Positions 46,485 through 55,938 of a stretch of 64,000 bases of DNA are shown here, in pieces. A program made the position numbers and the translations under genes. The DNA is taken from NCBI GenBank assembly GCA_023269615.1, contig JAHFSY010000006.1, forward strand, positions 11,033 to 75,032. Direction: 5' to 3'. Each line of letters opens with the position of its first letter. Position 1 is the stretch's first letter. This DNA comes from Verrucomicrobiota bacterium (lineage in GTDB: Bacteria > Verrucomicrobiota > Verrucomicrobiia > JABWAM01). Under the pieces are notes generated by a model. It was not told the DNA's origin and searched no databases. It saw only the letters and a program-made list of their open reading frames with translations.

Positions 46485-46581
46485 GGAGAGTGAAGGGTGC
46501 CTGGTGGCCCTCGCGGTCTTCAAAACCGCCGTCGGCCCGTTTTACGGGGCGAGGTGGGTTCGATTCCCACCCTCTCCGCCA
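46485..46581 (+). tRNA. selC: tRNA-Sec (anticodon UCA)
   Basis: 97 nt. GGAGAG.../...CTCTCC-G-CCA acceptor. Anticodon arm GCGGT-CTTCAAA-ACCGC with anticodon TCA. Long variable arm (GGCCCGTTTTACGGGGC). T-arm GGTGGG-TTCGATT-CCCACC. Sits directly upstream of selD. Confidence 0.9.
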
Positions 46582-46657: not shown

Positions 46658-47710
46658 ATGACCCGTGAGCGAATCTTGAAACTGACATCGCTTTCATCCT
46701 GTGCTGGATGAGCTTCAAAACTCAGCCAAAAGGCTCTGGCGCAAGTTTTGCGCCAGCTACCCCGAACGCATGACCGGAACCTGCTGGTGGGCATCGCCAC
46801 CGGCGACGACGCCGGCGTGTATCGCATTGACCGTGACCGGGCGCTGGTCCAGACGGTGGATTTTTTCACGCCCATCGTGGACGACGCATTCTCCTATGGA
46901 CAGATCGCCGCGGCCAACGCCCTCTCGGATGTTTACGCCATGGGTGGCCGTCCGCTCACGGCCATGAATCTCATGGGCGTTCCAACCGACCGTGTTCCTC
47001 CGCGGATCATCAACCAGATTCTGCGCGGCGGCGCGGCCAAGCTCAAGGAGGCGCGCTGTGTCCTTGTCGGCGGCCACACCATCCGCAATCCGGAACCCAT
47101 CTATGGCCTTTCGGTCACCGGCATGGTCTCGCCACGCCGCATGCTGACGAATGCCGCCGCGCGCGCAGGCGACCTGCTGGTGCTCACCAAGCCGCTCGGA
47201 ACCGGGGTGGTCACGACGGGAATCAAACGGGGCATCACATCACGGCCTCTGAAACAAAAGGCCGTTGCCCTCATGTGCCATCTCAATCTGGTCGGGACGG
47301 AGGTTGCCGAGCAGGGGCTTGTCCGCGCGGCAAGCGATGTGACGGGTTTTGGACTGCTTGGCCAGCTTGGAACCATGTGCCGCGCAAGCGGTGTGGGCGC
47401 GGAAGTGTTTGCGGGTTGTGTGCCCGTGATCAGTGATGAAGTGCTTGCCCTCATCTCACGAGAATGCATTCCCGGCGGAACCCGCGACAATCTTGCGCAC
47501 GCCGGCAAATTCGTGAAATGGAACCAAGGCGACGTCCGCTTGAAAATCCTGCTTGCCGACGCTCAAACCAGCGGCGGCCTTCTCCTCTGTGTACCGCCGC
47601 GCCATCTGCCCGCCGTTTTAAAGGTCCTGAAGCGGCATCGTGCGCCATGCGCGGCTGTGATGGGTCGGATCGTGCGCTCGTCGAAACCGATCATTGGGAT
47701 CAGACCATGA
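46658..47710 (+). CDS. selD: selenide, water dikinase SelD, Sec-containing (in-frame TGA at 46709..46711)
   Basis: AGGAGG lies 8 nt before ATG 46658. Translation MTRERILKLTSLSSCAG-U-ASKLSQKAL; U18 aligns with catalytic Cys17 of E. coli SelD (GAGCGCK). Downstream GDDAGVYRI and DFFTPIVDD. The track only shows the part from 46748. Confidence 0.9.
46736..46756 (+). promoter_or_regulatory. SECIS-like hairpin of selD
   Basis: CTGGCGCAA-GTT-TTGCGCCAG, a perfect 9-bp stem, starts 25 nt after the TGA. Confidence 0.6.
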
Positions 47711-49062
47711 AGCCAGCATCCTTGCGCTCCATCCCGGCGGTCGAAAAAGTGCTCCAGGCCCTCGGCACCCACGACCTGTCGCGCCCGGTCGTCGTTGCGG
47801 TTGTCCGACGCGAATTGGCGGCGCTGCGATCATCAAGGAAAGTTCCTGGCCTGGACACCGTCCTCGCCCGCATCCGCCATTCGCTCGAATTCCTGCGTCG
47901 CGCCCGAATCCAGCCTGTTGTGAACGGCACGGGCATTCTCGTCCACACCAACCTGGGCCGTTCGCCGCTCGCGCCGGCGGCGGTCGAAACGCTCACCGCC
48001 ATTGGCTCCAGCTACAACAACGTTGAATACGACCTGTCGGACGGTGAACGCGGCAAGCGCGCTTCCTATCTCGAGCACAATCTCGCCATCCTTTGCAGGG
48101 CCGAGGCTGCCACCGTGGTGAACAACAACGCCGCCGCACTCGTGTTGATCCTGCGGCACCTTTGCGCCGCACCGAAGTGCGACGTGGTGATCTCCCGTGG
48201 CGAACTGGTTCAAATTGGAGGCGAATTTCGAATTCCTGACATTCTTGAGGCAAGCGGCGCGCGTTTGCGGGAGGTGGGCACGACCAACAAGACCTTGATT
48301 TGCGACTATGAAAAAGCCATCCGACGGGAGACCGCGCTGGTCCTGAAGGTCCACCGCAGCAATTTTTTCATGGAAGGTTTTGTCGAGTCACCACCCACGG
48401 AACAAATCGCGGCGCTGGCGCGCAGAAAACGTGTTCCCCTGGTCGAGGATCTTGGCAGCGGGGCGGTGACGGAAACAGAAAAACTGGCTGGACTCGAACA
48501 TGAGCCGACTCCCGCCGAGGTATTGCGGCACGGGGCGGACCTGGTCTGTTTCAGCGGCGACAAACTCCTGGGCGGGCCGCAAGCGGGCATCATTGCCGGA
48601 AATGCGCGACGGGTCGCCGCTCTGAAGCGTGAGCCATTCTTTCGAGCGTTGCGCTGTGACAAGCTGATCCTCTCAGCCCTGCAAACGACCGTGGATCTCC
48701 ACCTCAAGGGTGACTCGCTGGACATCCCGGTGCTGTCCATGTCTGGCATTTCAATGGATGAACTGCGCACCCGCGCGGAACACATCGTGATTGCGCTTGC
48801 GGGTCTTCCCTTGAAGGCCGGCATCGGCGCTGGCCGGGCGCAAATGGGAGGTGGCACGCTCCCGCGGTCGGTGATCCCATCCGTCACCGTCGATCTCACC
48901 CCGGAAAAAGTCGCTCTCCCGGAATTCGCAAAACGCCTGCGTGAAAGCGTTCCGCCCGTCATCGGTTATATTTCGGGCGGACGTTTCAAACTCGACCTGC
49001 GCACGATTTTCCCACGACAGGACCAGGACCTCGTTCGCGCGATTCGACTGCTGAGCTTGTAG
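47707..49062 (+). CDS. selA: L-seryl-tRNA(Sec) selenium transferase
   Basis: ATGA overlap with selD. FSGDKLLGGPQAGIIAG contains the PLP-binding Lys motif. N-terminal MKPASLRSIPAVEKVL is typical. Confidence 0.9.
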   Translation: MKPASLRSIPAVEKVLQALGTHDLSRPVVVAVVRRELAALRSSRKVPGLDTVLARIRHSLEFLRRARIQPVVNGTGILVHTNLGRSPLAPAAVETLTAIGSSYNNVEYDLSDGERGKRASYLEHNLAILCRAEAATVVNNNAAALVLILRHLCAAPKCDVVISRGELVQIGGEFRIPDILEASGARLREVGTTNKTLICDYEKAIRRETALVLKVHRSNFFMEGFVESPPTEQIAALARRKRVPLVEDLGSGAVTETEKLAGLEHEPTPAEVLRHGADLVCFSGDKLLGGPQAGIIAGNARRVAALKREPFFRALRCDKLILSALQTTVDLHLKGDSLDIPVLSMSGISMDELRTRAEHIVIALAGLPLKAGIGAGRAQMGGGTLPRSVIPSVTVDLTPEKVALPEFAKRLRESVPPVIGYISGGRFKLDLRTIFPRQDQDLVRAIRLLSL

Positions 49063-49719: not shown

Positions 49720-49845
49720 CTTTGCCGTTCGGACGGGAGCGCGGGCGTCCCGCCCGCGTTTCAAAACCGATGGCGGGCAGGATGCCCGCCCTCCCGTCCA
49801 CGATGATTGCTTTGGCCCCTTCCTGATCGGTGTCGTTCAAGCTTT

Positions 49846-51876
49846 ATGACCGCCCGCCATTTCATCCTGGCCACTGCAGGCCACGTGGATCACGGCAAGA
49901 GCGCCCTGGTGAAAGCCCTGACCGGCACCGATCCCGATCGGTTGCCCGAGGAGAAGGCGCGGGGCATCACCATTGACCTCGGTTTTGCACATCTGGAATT
50001 GCAAGCGGCAGCGATGAGCAATCAGCGATCAGCAGTCAGCCATCAGCCATCAGCCGACGGTCCACATCCTTCATCCTTCATCCCTCATCCCTCATTCCTC
50101 TCTCTGGGCATCGTGGATGTTCCCGGGCACGAGGATTTTGTCAAAAACATGGTGGCCGGTGTCGGCTCAATCGATCTCGCGTTGCTGGTGGTGGCGGCGG
50201 ATGACGGCTGGATGCCTCAAACCGAGGAACACCTGCAAATTCTCATTCATCTGGGTGTCACGCGAGCCGTGGTCGCGCTCACCAAGATGGACCTGGCGCA
50301 AGGCGACGAAGCGCCGATCGTCGATGCCATCCGCGAAAAATTACGCGGCACGACCATTGCCGATGCCCCGATCATCGGAACCTCCGTGCTCAACGGTCGC
50401 GGCCTTGACGAGCTGAAAGCAGCGCTGGCCCGCGTGCTGGAAGGCGCTCCGTCTCAACCCGACATCGGCAAGCCGCGCCTGCCCGTGGATCGTGTGTTCA
50501 CCTTGCGCGGGGTTGGCACCGTGGTCACCGGCACGCTCACGGGCGGGATCCTCCGTCGTGGCCAGGCGGTGGTGGTCCAGCCTTCCGGCAAAACGGCCCA
50601 CGTCCGCGGCATCCAGAGCCACAACCGTGACGTCGAGTTCATTGGCCCAGGCACGCGCACCGCGTTGAGTCTCCCGGATCTTGCCGTTTCCGTGAAGGGT
50701 CATTCCGCGGTTGGCGACGAAGGTATCCACCGGGGCGATGTCATCACAGGGGCCGATTTCGGTGGGCCAAACACCACGCTGGGAGTGCTTCTGAAAACAT
50801 CGCCCCGTCCGCTGGAGGGCAGGGCGGGGGCGGCGCGCCCGCTCAAGGATGGAACGCTTGTTCACATCCATCATGGAAGCGGCCGTGTTTCGGCGCGCAT
50901 TCATCTGCTGGGCCAAAAGGAGCTAAACGCCGGTCAAGACAGTGTCGCCTTGCTGCATCTCGACACACCCATCTTCGCTTTCGCGGGCGACCGGTTCATC
51001 GTGCGCGACTGGCCGGAGCAACGCACGCTGGCCGGAGGCGTGGTGCTTGACCCCGATGCGGATCAAAAGCATGTCCGTGGCGAAATGCTCCACAAATTTC
51101 TGAAACGGAGGGCGGAAACGCCGGACCAGGCATCTGCTTTTATCATCTCCCAACTCGCGCGTGATGGCACGCTCCAGCGGTCCGCCCTGCTCGTCAAGTC
51201 GAGGTTCAGCGCCGTGGAAATTTCCGATGTCCTCGCGCAACTGTCGAAGGAAGGCAAGGCTGTCTGCTTCGGCGCATGGGCAGCGGATGCCTCATGGTGG
51301 CAAAAGCAACGGCGGATTGCGGTTGAGGCGATCGAAGAAGAGCACCGCGTTCATCCGGAGCGGACGGGATTGTCCCTGAACGCGCTGCGGCAGAAACTGG
51401 GGAGCGACGCTCATTCGACGGATGTGTTTGACGCGATGGTTGACGATCTTTGCAACAAAGACTTCATCCGCGTTGGCGCGGCGATCCGTCGGGTGACTCA
51501 TCGGCCCGCACTCCCGCCGCACCTTCAGGCGGCAGGAGCCAGGGTGCGCTCGGCTCTGGCGGCAAAACCATTTGACCCGCCTTCACGGAAGGAACTGGCA
51601 CCAGACGCCGTCACGCAGCAGGCGCTGCGGTTCCTGCTCGATACCGGTGAAGCAGCCGAGATCGGCGGTGAAGCTGTCCTGCTGGCGGAAAATTTTGCCC
51701 GTGCGACGGCCATCATCAAAAAATTCCTCGTGGATCATCGGGCGGCGACCGTCAGCGAGCTGCGACAGGCGGTTGGAACCAGCCGCAGAATTCTTGTGCC
51801 GTTGCTTGAGCGTCTCGACCGTGAAGGCGTCACGCTGCGCCAGGGCGACCGGCGCGTGCTGCGGCCGGGCCGGTGA
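49846..51876 (+). CDS. selB: selenocysteine-specific elongation factor SelB
   Basis: [19 protein letters not shown] (G1), DVPGHEDF (G3), LTKMD (G4), and C-terminal winged-helix [37 protein letters not shown]. Carries an insertion of about 30 aa encoded by heptamer repeats. Confidence 0.9.
50017..50100. repeat. two tandem heptamer blocks inside selB (ATCAGCN units at 50017..50055; CATCCTT/CATCCCT units at 50064..50100)
   Basis: gagcaatcagcgatcagcagtcagccatcagccatcagcc ... acatccttcatccttcatccctcatccctcattcctc encodes [28 protein letters not shown]. Confidence 0.85.
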
Positions 51877-52068: not shown

Positions 52069-53292
52069 TTGGCTTTTGTTCCTCCACGCTTGTGCTATGG
52101 AAGGATCGTGAAACATGGACGATACGCCGTGTGGGTGACGGGGTCCTTTCTCCTTCTGGCCTTCGTGTTTCCACGACATGTCGTGGCAGGTCCTGCCGAG
52201 GAGTATCAGAGCTTGGTGAAGGAATACGATGCCGCCATGCAGGAGTTTTACAAGGTTTATGGCGAGGCCAAGACAGAAGAAGCAAAAGCGAAGGCATATG
52301 AAAAGTGTCCACGGAACGAGAGCTATACCGGTCGTTTTCTTGCGCTGGCCGAAAAACATCCCAAGGAGCCGCTGGCCCTCGACGCGCTCCAATGGGTCAT
52401 CCTTCACACGCAGCATGGCCCAGAGTTCGAGAAGGCGTTAAAAATCATTGCCGACGTCCACATCCAAAATGAAAAAATCGGGCCGATCTGCGAACTGTTG
52501 ACGAATCTCCCGATTCCCATGAGCGAACAACTGCTCCGCGGAATTTTGGAGAAGAACACTTACCACGAAGCCAAAGGCTATGCGGCCTTGAGCCTGGGCC
52601 AATTTCTCAAAAATGAATCCGCCGTGGCTCATTACTTGAAGGAATTGAATCCTGCCTCCCTGGCTGGCCATGAGCGGTATTATGGGAAGGATGGCGTGGA
52701 AAAGATGCTGCACAGCGATCCAAAAAAACTAACCGAGGAAGCCGAGAAATCTTTTGAGCAGGTGATCGAAAAATACGGCGACATCAAGTTCGGTGAACGC
52801 ACTCTTGCTGATTTTGCCAAAGCGGAATTGTTTGAAATCCGCAACCTGACGATTGGCAAGGTGGCGCCGGAAATCGAAGGGGTGGATGTTGATGGCAAGG
52901 CTTTCAAGCTGAGCGACTACCGAGGGAAGGTTGTGGTGCTCGATTTCTGGGGGGATTGGTGAGGCCCCTGCCGGGGCATGTACCCACACGAGCGGTCGCT
53001 CGTGGCACGACTGAAGGACAAACCCTTCGTGATCCTTGGGATCAATAGCGATCCGAAGGAGAATCTCAAGAAGGCGATCGAGCGGGAAAAAATGACCTGG
53101 CGCTCATGGTGGGATGGAGGCAATCCGAACGGTCCGATTGCAAGCAAATGGAACGTCAGTGGCTGGCCGACGGTTTATGTCCTCGATCACAAGGGAGTCA
53201 TCCGCTACAAGGAGGCCGAGCTTGATGAAGCCGTGGACACGCTCCTCAAGGAGCTTGATCAGGAAGCCAAGGTGGACCAAGGGAAGAAATGA
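52069..53292 (+). CDS. exported TlpA/thioredoxin-fold selenoprotein (in-frame TGA at 52960..52962; W-U-G-P-C)
   Basis: Track ORFs 52069..52962 and 52978..53292 share one frame. The junction reads VVVLDFWGDW-U-GPCRGMYPHERSLVARLKDKPFVILGINSD, the TlpA/ResA motif FWAxWCxPC with Sec in place of the first Cys. Signal/anchor segment and a helical N-domain of about 250 aa. Start is TTG 52069 or GTG 52108. Confidence 0.8.
52987..53004 (+). promoter_or_regulatory. SECIS-like hairpin of the TlpA-like gene
   Basis: CACGAGC-GGTC-GCTCGTG, a perfect 7-bp stem with a GGUC loop, starts 25 nt after the TGA. Confidence 0.6.
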
Positions 53293-53300
53293 ATTCTCTT

Positions 53301-54290
53301 TCAGGGAGAAGGTGTTGATCCTTGGGCGACGTTTGCGGCCTTGCGAAGATAGAGCCAGACCCAGCCGTGATATTCCGTGTTTGCACCGGATGAACTGGCA
53401 AAATCGCCGACGAGGAGATCCATGCGACCGTCGCCATTCCAATCGGTCACGCAGATTTTTGCGCGGATGCTCCCTTCGGGAAGTTTTAGAAGAATCACCG
53501 GGGCATCCAGCTTGGGTGCCCCCTTCTCGCCGATGTTGCGAAACCACGACACGCTTCCATCTCCCGCTCCGACAAGAAGGTCTGGTTTCCCGTCTCCGTC
53601 CCAGTCCGTCACACAGGGGCCCGCATCGCCGGAAACCATGAGTTTTCCACTCGGCAGCAGGGGCTGGGCCTGGCCAAAGGCGGGTTTTTCGCGGGTTCCT
53701 TCGTTCGGAATCAAAAACACCTTTCCCTGGATGTTGCCAACCAGAAGATCAAGATCGCCGTCGCCATCCCAATCCACGGAAAAAGGCACGGCAGCCGTCT
53801 GCTTGATCGGACTGCCCTTGGAATCCTTCAAGATTTCGCCCGCGGCGAATTGCCCGTCTGCTTGTTGGCGGAAAAGGTACAGCTCGCCTGGCGAATAGGA
53901 ACCCGTCAAGACATCAGGCTTCCCGTCGTTATCGAAGTCCACAAACTGTGGACTGAAGCCGACGCATCACCCAGTTGGAACTTTGGCGTCCGCGCCCCCG
54001 GCCTTGAGGTAGCTGAAGCTGCCAAAGGAAGGTTTCTCATTGGTGCCTTCGTTCCGGTAGATGCGCAGCCTGCCGCGAAATTCACCCGCGAGCAGGTCGA
54101 ATTTTCCGTCTCCATCAAAATCGGCAACAAAAGGCGCTGCGTGCCCGATCTCGCTGCCGAGATCGATCGGCTTTCCACCCGCCTCGATTTTCACCGGAGC
54201 GGAAAACTCATCGCCAGCTCCCGCAAAGAGCATGCCGGCCGTGAAGGCCAGGCCGAAGGTGCTCAAGAATTGTTTGCTTCCCGGTTTCAT
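53301..54290 (-). CDS. exported FG-GAP/VCBS-repeat protein with in-frame TGA (53967..53969): candidate selenoprotein
   Basis: Track ORFs 53967..54425(-) and 53301..53942(-) are one frame. Read-through gives ...GADAKVPTG-U-CVGFSPQFVDFDNDGKPDVL..., inside one of five D[FW]D(G/N)DG repeat units. Signal peptide MKPGSKQFLSTFGLAFTAGMLFAGA from ATG 54290. Confidence 0.6.
53937..53953 (-). promoter_or_regulatory. SECIS-like hairpin of the FG-GAP gene
   Basis: On the minus strand, GUCCACA-GUU-UGUGGAC is a perfect 7-bp stem starting 14 nt after the TGA. The GUU triloop closed by A-U matches the selD hairpin. Confidence 0.5.
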
Positions 54291-54960: not shown

Positions 54961-55938
54961 TCAGGAACCGTGCGGATCGTTCGTGCGACGGAACGTGAAC
55001 TCGGTTTCCGTCTTCACGGTTTTCCCATCCACTTCGAGAACTGGATAAACCAGGAAATTGATCGCTCCTCCGGCGGGTCCTGGTTCCACGACCAAATCGC
55101 GCCCCGTGCTGAACTCGAAACGGTTGGCGGGATGGTGGCCAAAATAGTAAGCCGCCATTTTTGGATGTTTTGCCGCCTCGCTGATATCGACTGGAATCCA
55201 GCGCCCGTCCGCAAGGAATTCCGCCCAGCAATGATAGCCCCCAATGACCCCGTCGTTCTTGTCGGCCGGAATCGTGGCGCCAATCTCAAAGCGCGCGGGA
55301 ATGCCGGCGGCGCGTGCGAGTGCGATGAAGTAGGCGTGAAAATCCGTGCAGTTTCCGGCCCGGGCTTCGCAGGCATGGACGGCGTCACCATAGCCCCATC
55401 CCGTGCCGCTTTTATCGTAACGCATGCGCTGCCGCACATGGTCGTAAAGCGCCCGCCCACGCTCCAGGTCTCCCTTCTTCCCTCGCACCGCTTCCAGCGC
55501 GAGGCCGCGAAAGGTTTTATTCACCGGCACGAGGTGGTCCGGACGCAGATAACGGGACGGATCGGAAGCCTTGTCATCATCGTAGGAGGTCTTTTCAAGG
55601 CGCTTCACCTGATATGTTACCTCGATGATCCCGTCGCTCTCGTCCGAGCCCGGAGCTAGGAACAGGATGTCATTGCCGTAGTCGCGATCACCCAGCTTTT
55701 TCCACCGCCCTGGAGCCGTGATCTTCTTCACCTTCACGGTCTGGTAGGAATCCGATTTCGCAAGTGGCATCCACAGGCGTCCAGCCCCGGCGATCCTGGG
55801 CAGCTTCACCCGATAGACGAATTCAAACTGGTCGGTTCCGTGCACCATTTCCGACTCGTCCGTCGGAGCGGCTGCGACCGTTTCCATTCGGAAAAGAGAC
55901 AGGAAACCAACGAGGATGAGGGCGTGGGCGACCGACAT
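54961..55938 (-). CDS. exported transglutaminase-like (Cys-protease-fold) protein
   Basis: Signal peptide MSVAHALILVGFLSLFRMETVAAAP. Transglutaminase core GNCTDFHAYFIALARAAGIPARF...GYHCWAEF...WIPVD (Cys-His-Asp). Confidence 0.75.
   Translation of the reverse strand: MSVAHALILVGFLSLFRMETVAAAPTDESEMVHGTDQFEFVYRVKLPRIAGAGRLWMPLAKSDSYQTVKVKKITAPGRWKKLGDRDYGNDILFLAPGSDESDGIIEVTYQVKRLEKTSYDDDKASDPSRYLRPDHLVPVNKTFRGLALEAVRGKKGDLERGRALYDHVRQRMRYDKSGTGWGYGDAVHACEARAGNCTDFHAYFIALARAAGIPARFEIGATIPADKNDGVIGGYHCWAEFLADGRWIPVDISEAAKHPKMAAYYFGHHPANRFEFSTGRDLVVEPGPAGGAINFLVYPVLEVDGKTVKTETEFTFRRTNDPHGS

Follow-up and report, generated by a model that had tools for sequence, protein, structure and literature searches.

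An apparently uncatalogued selenoprotein family with an FG-GAP/VCBS beta-propeller, encoded near the selenocysteine genes of a Verrucomicrobiota bacterium

The locus and the systems it resembles

To our knowledge, the selenoproteins described from bacteria are, with few exceptions, oxidoreductases with a thioredoxin fold or a metal cofactor. Here we describe a gene of another kind: an FG-GAP/VCBS repeat gene with a single internal in-frame UGA, located on the minus strand (53301..54290) of a 64,000-nucleotide stretch of DNA from a Verrucomicrobiota bacterium (contig JAHFSY010000006.1), hereafter the window. In layout it matches bacterial genes that carry a bacterial selenocysteine insertion sequence (bSECIS) within the open reading frame (ORF), such as fdhF of E. 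coli and the window's own selD: a UGA is followed at 16–37 nt by a short hairpin with a G-U loop, decoding would be by tRNA-Sec, SelA, SelB and SelD, and homologues with cysteine (Cys) in place of selenocysteine (Sec) exist. The difference lies in the host protein, an FG-GAP beta-propeller rather than an oxidoreductase of a known family. Judged from sequence, the UGA (53969..53967) very probably encodes Sec, and the family to which the gene belongs is apparently a genuine, widespread and uncatalogued family of selenoproteins.

Several described systems share one or other feature with the predicted protein. Thioredoxin reductase has a C-terminal Gly-Cys-Sec-Gly redox centre; there, as here, adjacent Cys and Sec residues are flanked by Gly, and an eight-membered vicinal selenenylsulfide ring is possible. 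A relative from a member of the Victivallales (locus L049) even has the order G-C-U-G found in thioredoxin reductase. The window protein differs in that the order is U-C and the pair occupies an internal propeller loop instead of a flexible C-terminal tail; moreover, it has no flavoprotein or oxidoreductase domain detectable by Pfam and is probably extracytoplasmic. A centre of the thioredoxin-reductase type was considered and rejected: there is no C-terminal GCUG, the motif G-U-C-V-G being found at residues 107–111 of 329.

FG-GAP repeats with DxDxDG calcium loops are also present in integrin alpha, CRTAC1, ITFG2 and the Psathyrella lectin PVL. Integrin alpha subunits and PVL have seven blades, in contrast to the five of the model described below (homologue P0004), and these known FG-GAP propellers have neither Sec nor a conserved vicinal Cys-Cys at the loop concerned. 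Methanol dehydrogenase, an eight-bladed beta-propeller enzyme dependent on pyrroloquinoline quinone (PQQ), has at its active site a disulfide of a rare kind, between vicinal Cys residues. It shares with the window protein both the propeller and the vicinal Cys pair, but it is PQQ-dependent and not of the FG-GAP type; we regard it as a lead only. Lastly, vicinal Cys/Sec pairs are known from the CopZ-like 2Fe-2S proteins (GxUC or CU), HgcA, the MerB-like SaoL, MbdU, SaoC and KCU-star (PMC13188914). These are small metal-binding or corrinoid/lyase proteins, not calcium-binding propellers, and are unrelated to the window protein in sequence and fold; nonetheless, several handle metals or organometals, and the binding of soft metals is accordingly a plausible role besides redox catalysis.

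Reading frame, relatives and hairpin

The frame extends from an ATG at 54290..54288 to a terminal TGA at 53303..53301 (minus strand) and contains one internal stop, the TGA at 53969..53967; read through this codon, the coding sequence (53301..54290) specifies 329 residues. The initial annotation had taken two minus-strand ORFs for a single frame broken solely by this TGA, with Sec followed at once by Cys, and frame analysis agrees: the TGA (53967..53969, residue 108) is followed directly by TGC (53964..53966, Cys109), giving a U-C dipeptide in the motif G-U-C-[IV]-G-[FS] and a read-through product that reads ...AKVPTG-U-CVGFSPQFVDFDNDGKPD... around the site. Homologues align to the protein from Met1 onward. 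A second, independent assembly of this organism, obtained from another sample, has the gene in identical form and with the TGA, which is thus not an assembly error. The tryptic peptide suggested for detection of the protein, VPTGUCVGFSPQFVDFDNDGK, is indeed part of the product, but its terminal Lys is followed by Pro, and trypsin probably would not cut the Lys-Pro bond after ...DNDGK.

Five stretches of the protein match the Pfam family FG-GAP_3 (PF13517; E=2e-37, 127.9 bits, cut-off 26.9), while FG-GAP (PF01839) scores 72 bits (cut-off 22.1). The read-through product contains all five of the repeat units reported at the outset, each encoded on the minus strand. DFDGDG, the calcium-loop motif of blade 1 (54105..54122), is evident from sequence, Pfam and homologue alignment; DFDNDG, that of blade 2 (53922..53939), has its first codon (GAC) within the 3′ arm of the hairpin described below. 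Blades 3 and 4 both carry DWDGDG (53757..53774 and 53589..53606), with D173 and D181 invariant in the former and D229, W230, D233 and D237 in the latter, and DWNGDG in blade 5 (53427..53444) is supported by sequence and homologue alignment. Cys280 is conserved as well. At the N-terminus, basic residues precede a hydrophobic segment in what is a probable signal peptide (MKPGSKQFLSTFGLAFTAGMLFAGAG; 54213..54290, minus strand). Because of this signal-peptide-like N-terminus the protein is probably exported; the N-termini of homologues are equivalent, and residues 1–20 of a modelled homologue are of low pLDDT (predicted local distance difference test).

A search at the protein level yielded over 2,500 relatives. 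Those of full length (∼400 residues) have Cys aligned to the TGA, often as Cys-Cys (VPSGCCVGFTPQ and similar), as the initial annotation had proposed should be looked for: among some 90 homologues without an interruption, 66 have Cys at position 108, and the pairs at 108–109 are CC (37), CR (9) and CQ (6), followed by forms with H, Y, N and others at 109. Short relatives (∼210–236 residues) start right after the Sec position. Upstream of each is an FG-GAP ORF of ∼100 residues in the same frame, with one TGA and then TGC or TGT between the two. In more distant FG-GAP paralogues (motif LEMIVP...) the site is occupied neither by Cys nor by TGA; the window itself contains no paralogue.

DNA scans covered one genome per GTDB species together with the metagenomes of the Joint Genome Institute (JGI), using tblastn alignments anchored on the Sec column. 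Between them the two scans gave 88 distinct loci with TGA-TGY at this column, that is, 88 Sec-form loci in which Cys follows Sec, versus 10 with Cys-Cys. Nearest to the window gene are relatives in metagenome-assembled genomes (MAGs) of Planctomycetota and Verrucomicrobiota. Sec forms come from Gemmataceae, Pirellulales, Phycisphaerae and Sedimentisphaerales within the Planctomycetota, and also from Verrucomicrobiota (Roseibacillus and others), Victivallales, Armatimonadota (Chthonomonadaceae), WOR-3 and KSB1; orthologues are 35–86% identical. The best alignments, whose median span is residues 23–299, contain one stop and no more in 85 of 87 loci. The scattered stops that had been put forward as the mark of a pseudogene are thus absent from these 85, and gene decay is thereby ruled out.

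Some relatives depart from this pattern. Two Sec-form metagenome loci (L110 and L142) contain extra stops or frameshifts, which may be sequencing errors at low coverage or real decay. The reactive pair itself varies: C-U together with a 4-codon insertion in L049, G-U-L (Sec at the second position) in L163, U-C-C in L153, U-G in L100 and L112, and U-A or U-G with no following Cys in L143, L144 and L147. In those variant-pair relatives that were inspected the hairpin is kept. In some genomes there are two or three Sec-form paralogues, on separate contigs, as in MAG_CPA_17 (L032, L037 and L039) and in one Victivallales MAG (L044 and L049).

Downstream of the UGA is a bSECIS-type hairpin, AGUCCACA-GUU-UGUGGACU (53936..53954, minus strand), with an 8-bp stem and, at a distance of 20 nt from the UGA, a GUU loop (53944..53946). 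The 7-bp GUCCACA stem of the initial annotation, beginning at the 14th nucleotide after the UGA, is real but incomplete, there being an extra A-U pair one nucleotide earlier. The A-U-closed GUU triloop, for which a likeness to the selD hairpin had been claimed, is the same in selD (GGCGCAA-GUU-UUGCGCC). Published bSECIS consensus features are an apical loop of 3–9 nt with G within the first two positions and usually G or U next, a stem of 4–16 bp, a distance of 16–37 nt from UGA to loop, and a minimum free energy of −7.5 kcal/mol or lower (PMC13188914). The proposed check for a SECIS element came out in favor: with its GUU loop, 8 bp, 20-nt spacing and −10.6 kcal/mol, the hairpin falls within all of these limits. 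Furthermore, the 61-nt region after the TGA folds better than shuffled sequence (z = −3.3). At Rfam gathering thresholds the window contains tRNA-Sec as its only match and no member of the SECIS families.

Covariation was assessed in an ungapped alignment of 45 Sec loci, with 500 shuffles and with registers slid by 1–3 columns. In the hairpin columns 85% of cells are paired, compared with 25–48% in the slid registers; six of the eight pairs show compensatory substitutions in both arms (such as CCA/GUG to CCG/GCG, and CC..GG to CU..AG), and none of the 500 shuffles matches the observed values. Synonymous positions were tested because the stem overlaps a conserved peptide, P-Q-[FL]-V-D. The Pro codon of the stem is CCA in 35 of 43 cases (81%), as opposed to 9.7% elsewhere in the same genes; the Val codon is GTG in 38 of 38, as opposed to 33%; and at 43 of 48 loci the codon preceding the Pro codon ends in T. 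Cys- and Gly-form relatives with this peptide encode it by other codons and are without the hairpin. Median fragment energy is −10.5 kcal/mol for the 88 Sec loci versus −5.15 for 24 non-Sec loci (Mann–Whitney p = 5e-10). Together, the covariation, the synonymous sites and the absence from Cys forms point to an RNA structure under selection of its own, and the check on hairpin conservation has thus come out in favor of the hairpin: it is kept and covaries in Sec loci and is missing from Cys forms.

In some single-sequence folds a possible second, lower helix forms between the codons just after the UGA and the DxDG codons. In one register 28% of its cells pair; that register is one column off for the window and is cut by the end of the alignment, and for these reasons the lower helix is unproven rather than excluded.

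Fold, decoding and rival explanations

The fold was modeled with AlphaFold2 on a Cys homologue, P0004, which is 52% identical to the window protein (alignment of 101 sequences). The model (pLDDT 92.3, predicted TM-score 0.89) is one propeller of five four-stranded blades and draws on sequence from both sides of the TGA position. Since both halves of the gene build one propeller, the TGA is mid-domain and neither half closes alone, which bears out the initial view that the stop is not at a domain boundary and that the halves are not stand-alone proteins. The Cys-Cys pair of P0004 (residues 100–101) lies in a confident 20-residue loop that leads from strand 81–86, the last of blade 1, to strand 107–109, the first and innermost of blade 2, with the DxDxDG loop directly after. 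By this model Sec108-Cys109 is in the loop that connects blades 1 and 2. In integrin-type propellers the loops between strand 4 and strand 1 of the next blade make up the ligand-binding face, with the calcium loops on the opposite face, and the propeller face near the central axis is the usual place of ligand binding or active sites.

Fold and sequence searches of the PDB returned generic FG-GAP propellers only (ITFG2, CRTAC1, integrins, PVL and TcB), with TM-scores of 0.33–0.39. Most homologues have a helical hairpin of ∼55 residues before the last strand (HGxVWLYLRK), at residues 334–388 in P0004; homologue P0003 has a much longer, coiled-coil-like insert at this place, and the helical-hairpin insert is absent from the window protein and from the Sec forms closest to it.

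The machinery for Sec insertion is encoded 1.4–7.5 kb away from the FG-GAP gene, on the plus strand. A tRNA-Sec with anticodon UCA (46485..46581) is recognized by ARAGORN and by Rfam (RF01852, 62.9 bits, cut-off 47). The three protein genes were called with the curated cut-offs of NCBIfam, all of which are exceeded: selD (46658..47710; TIGR00476, 336 bits, cut-off 125), selA, for L-seryl-tRNA(Sec) selenium transferase (47710..49062; TIGR00474, 480 bits, cut-off 268), and selB, for the Sec-specific elongation factor that binds the hairpin (49807..51876; TIGR00475, 313 bits, cut-off 242). In this order the four genes make up a single compact sel locus. The selenophosphate synthetase encoded by selD is itself of the Sec form (...SSCAG-U-ASK..., TGA 46709..46711); its 7-bp hairpin (46738..46754) places the GUU triloop 33 nt after the UGA.

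Linkage between the family and sel loci is recurrent, in that three further loci repeat the placement. At L148 (264–2700) and L136 (2–2700) a Sec-form family gene with the motif SVSYA-U-CQGAAPQ directly follows selD and tRNA-Sec, and at L165 (1–969) a 5′-truncated member, in which the Sec site is not visible, abuts tRNA-Sec. By a rough estimate (∼170 loci, flanks of 1.5–3 kb) ∼0.1 such adjacencies would be expected by chance.

Decoding would proceed by the standard bacterial route. SelD would make selenophosphate and SelA would turn Ser-tRNA(Sec) into Sec-tRNA(Sec); SelB with Sec-tRNA(Sec) would then bind the hairpin (53954..53936) and, competing with release factor 2, bring Sec to the ribosome. 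All components of this scheme are encoded within 7.5 kb of the FG-GAP gene. The recoding mechanism is standard; the protein family and its fold are apparently new. We put the probability of the whole explanation – a 329-residue propeller protein decoded with Sec, including this route – at roughly 0.88.

Four other accounts of the UGA deserve consideration. It could be read through by a near-cognate tRNA, with insertion of Trp, Cys or Arg and the hairpin acting as a general stimulator. Sequence analysis does not distinguish which amino acid is inserted, and downstream hairpins do stimulate read-through in other systems; yet at the aligned residue homologues have Cys, the classic counterpart of Sec, the hairpin agrees with the bSECIS model and with the hairpin in selD of the same organism, and Sec machinery adjoins the gene in the window as well as at L148 and L136, all of which makes such read-through improbable. 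The UGA could alternatively be a true stop, separating two proteins (107 residues and about 213 residues) or a termination–reinitiation pair, and gene callers do split the locus in this manner in every database entry. Nevertheless, the Cys-form homologues are single polypeptides, the model is one closed five-bladed propeller requiring both parts, the start codons called for the downstream piece vary among orthologues and lie inside conserved sequence, and conservation continues in one frame across the TGA: we consider a true stop very improbable.

The case for a pseudogene, or for a sequencing or assembly error, is that a single window is compatible with a nonsense mutation and that L110 and L142 carry extra disruptions. 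Set against this are the 88 distinct loci with TGA at one and the same column, the lack of any other stop in 85 of 87, the identical independent assembly, and the strong conservation of both halves as protein; nor, at 35–86% identity, can the orthologues be copies of one contaminant. We give this account almost no weight. As little belongs to a global reassignment of UGA to Trp or Gly (genetic code 4 or 25), to which the few distant relatives with Gly at position 108 (‘G-C’ forms) might be taken to point. Of the 52 open frames in the window that are 300 codons or longer, 36 end in TGA, as does the FG-GAP gene, and the use of this codon as the ordinary stop excludes genome-wide reassignment; besides, the tRNA with the UCA anticodon is tRNA-Sec according to both ARAGORN and Rfam.

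Insertion of Sec is the reading that we prefer, and a number of points weigh against it or temper it. The insertion of Sec at the UGA is deduced from sequence. In a narrow 28-nt fold 13 of 49 loci fail the −7.5 kcal/mol or the stem criterion, the remaining 36 passing all; conservation of the hairpin is partly owed to the conserved P-Q-[FL]-V-D peptide; and the codon-bias and Cys-form controls use modest numbers of Cys forms (10 CC, 24 in all). Sec machinery has been confirmed in other genomes at three loci only. No conserved gene partner emerged, no Pfam family being present in more than two of 78 flanking ORFs. The PDB fold and sequence searches yielded no informative solved structure, and it is strand order that leads us to place the U-C loop, tentatively, near the axis and on the propeller face that points away from the calcium loops.

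Neighborhood, novelty and possible function

Convergent with the FG-GAP gene is a TlpA/redoxin-like gene (52069..53292, plus strand) with a TGA of its own (52960..52962) in the motif W-U-G-P-C (UxxC). AhpC-TSA/Redoxin matches are found on both sides of this TGA; a hairpin, CACGAGC-GGUC-GCUCGUG (52987..53004), follows it after 31 nt, and the 61-nt fold is not above shuffles (z = −0.6). The gene is probably a member of a catalogued thiol-disulfide isomerase/redoxin family of selenoproteins. The initial annotation was correct about the geometry of the pair, the TlpA-like ORF ending at 53292, 8 bp from the FG-GAP stop; the pairing is not conserved elsewhere, however, tblastn placing a TlpA-like neighbor near only two other family loci, and weakly. 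Probably the two genes adjoin through a clustering of selenoprotein genes near the sel locus and not through joint function. On the other side, upstream of the FG-GAP gene and on the same strand, is a transglutaminase-like gene (54961..55938, minus strand; PF01841, E = 1e-26). A transglut_core gene inside a Sec-insertion operon was reported from a Rhodopirellula-like genome in a 2016 paper on Planctomycetes (PMC4807772).

The sources consulted are in keeping with a new family. NCBIfam (June 2026) has no model for an FG-GAP selenoprotein family and gave no specific match; a 2026 inventory, which lists 119 families and subfamilies of selenoproteins from prokaryotes, has no FG-GAP, VCBS or propeller entry, and its sole U-C motif is that of the CopZ-like 2Fe-2S protein (PMC13188914). 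Such a family is mentioned neither in the deep-Sep paper nor in the main text of the BSepDB paper, and a search of the literature, subscription journals lying outside its scope, for selenoproteins or selenocysteine in conjunction with FG-GAP, VCBS or beta-propeller produced nothing relevant. There is some chance, albeit a small one, that the family has already been reported somewhere. All database copies are split into two ORFs, and at least 88 distinct loci are therefore mis-annotated; selenoproteome counts for bacteria of the Planctomycetota–Verrucomicrobiota–Chlamydiota (PVC) group and for several candidate phyla are too low. An annotation model could be built on the motif G-U-C-[IV]-G-[FS]-x-P-Q in combination with the hairpin GUCCAC-N(3-5)-GUGGAC, which together are specific enough.

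Evidence for the function of the protein is thin. The conserved position is the first of the pair (Sec/Cys108); the Cys that follows is nearly always kept in Sec forms and variable in Cys forms, a pattern that fits a reactive Sec protected or recycled via a vicinal selenenylsulfide. Sec108 would then be the reactive residue of an extracytoplasmic site engaged in redox chemistry or in binding soft metals or metalloids, and Cys109 the partner that closes the selenenylsulfide. We offer this chemistry, whether redox-active or soft-metal/selenium-binding, as a tentative proposal.

FG-GAP/VCBS propellers serve in adhesion and ligand binding and are very common, and functionally obscure, in Planctomycetota and Verrucomicrobiota. 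The presence of Sec in one of them broadens the structural range of selenoproteins, and the Sec site provides a concrete reactive residue as an entry point to the function of this group of propellers. It is conceivable, though doubtful as yet, that the family represents the first beta-propeller selenoprotein: an exported calcium-binding family with Sec-Cys at the mouth of the propeller, performing catalytic redox chemistry or the capture of selenium or soft metals. If so, then with Sec forms outnumbering Cys-Cys forms in the DNA scans (88 versus 10 distinct loci) Sec would be the norm in this family and not an occasional substitution, and the placement of its genes beside selD and tRNA-Sec (in the window, L148, L136 and L165) would reflect an extracytoplasmic role in the handling of selenium or oxidative stress.

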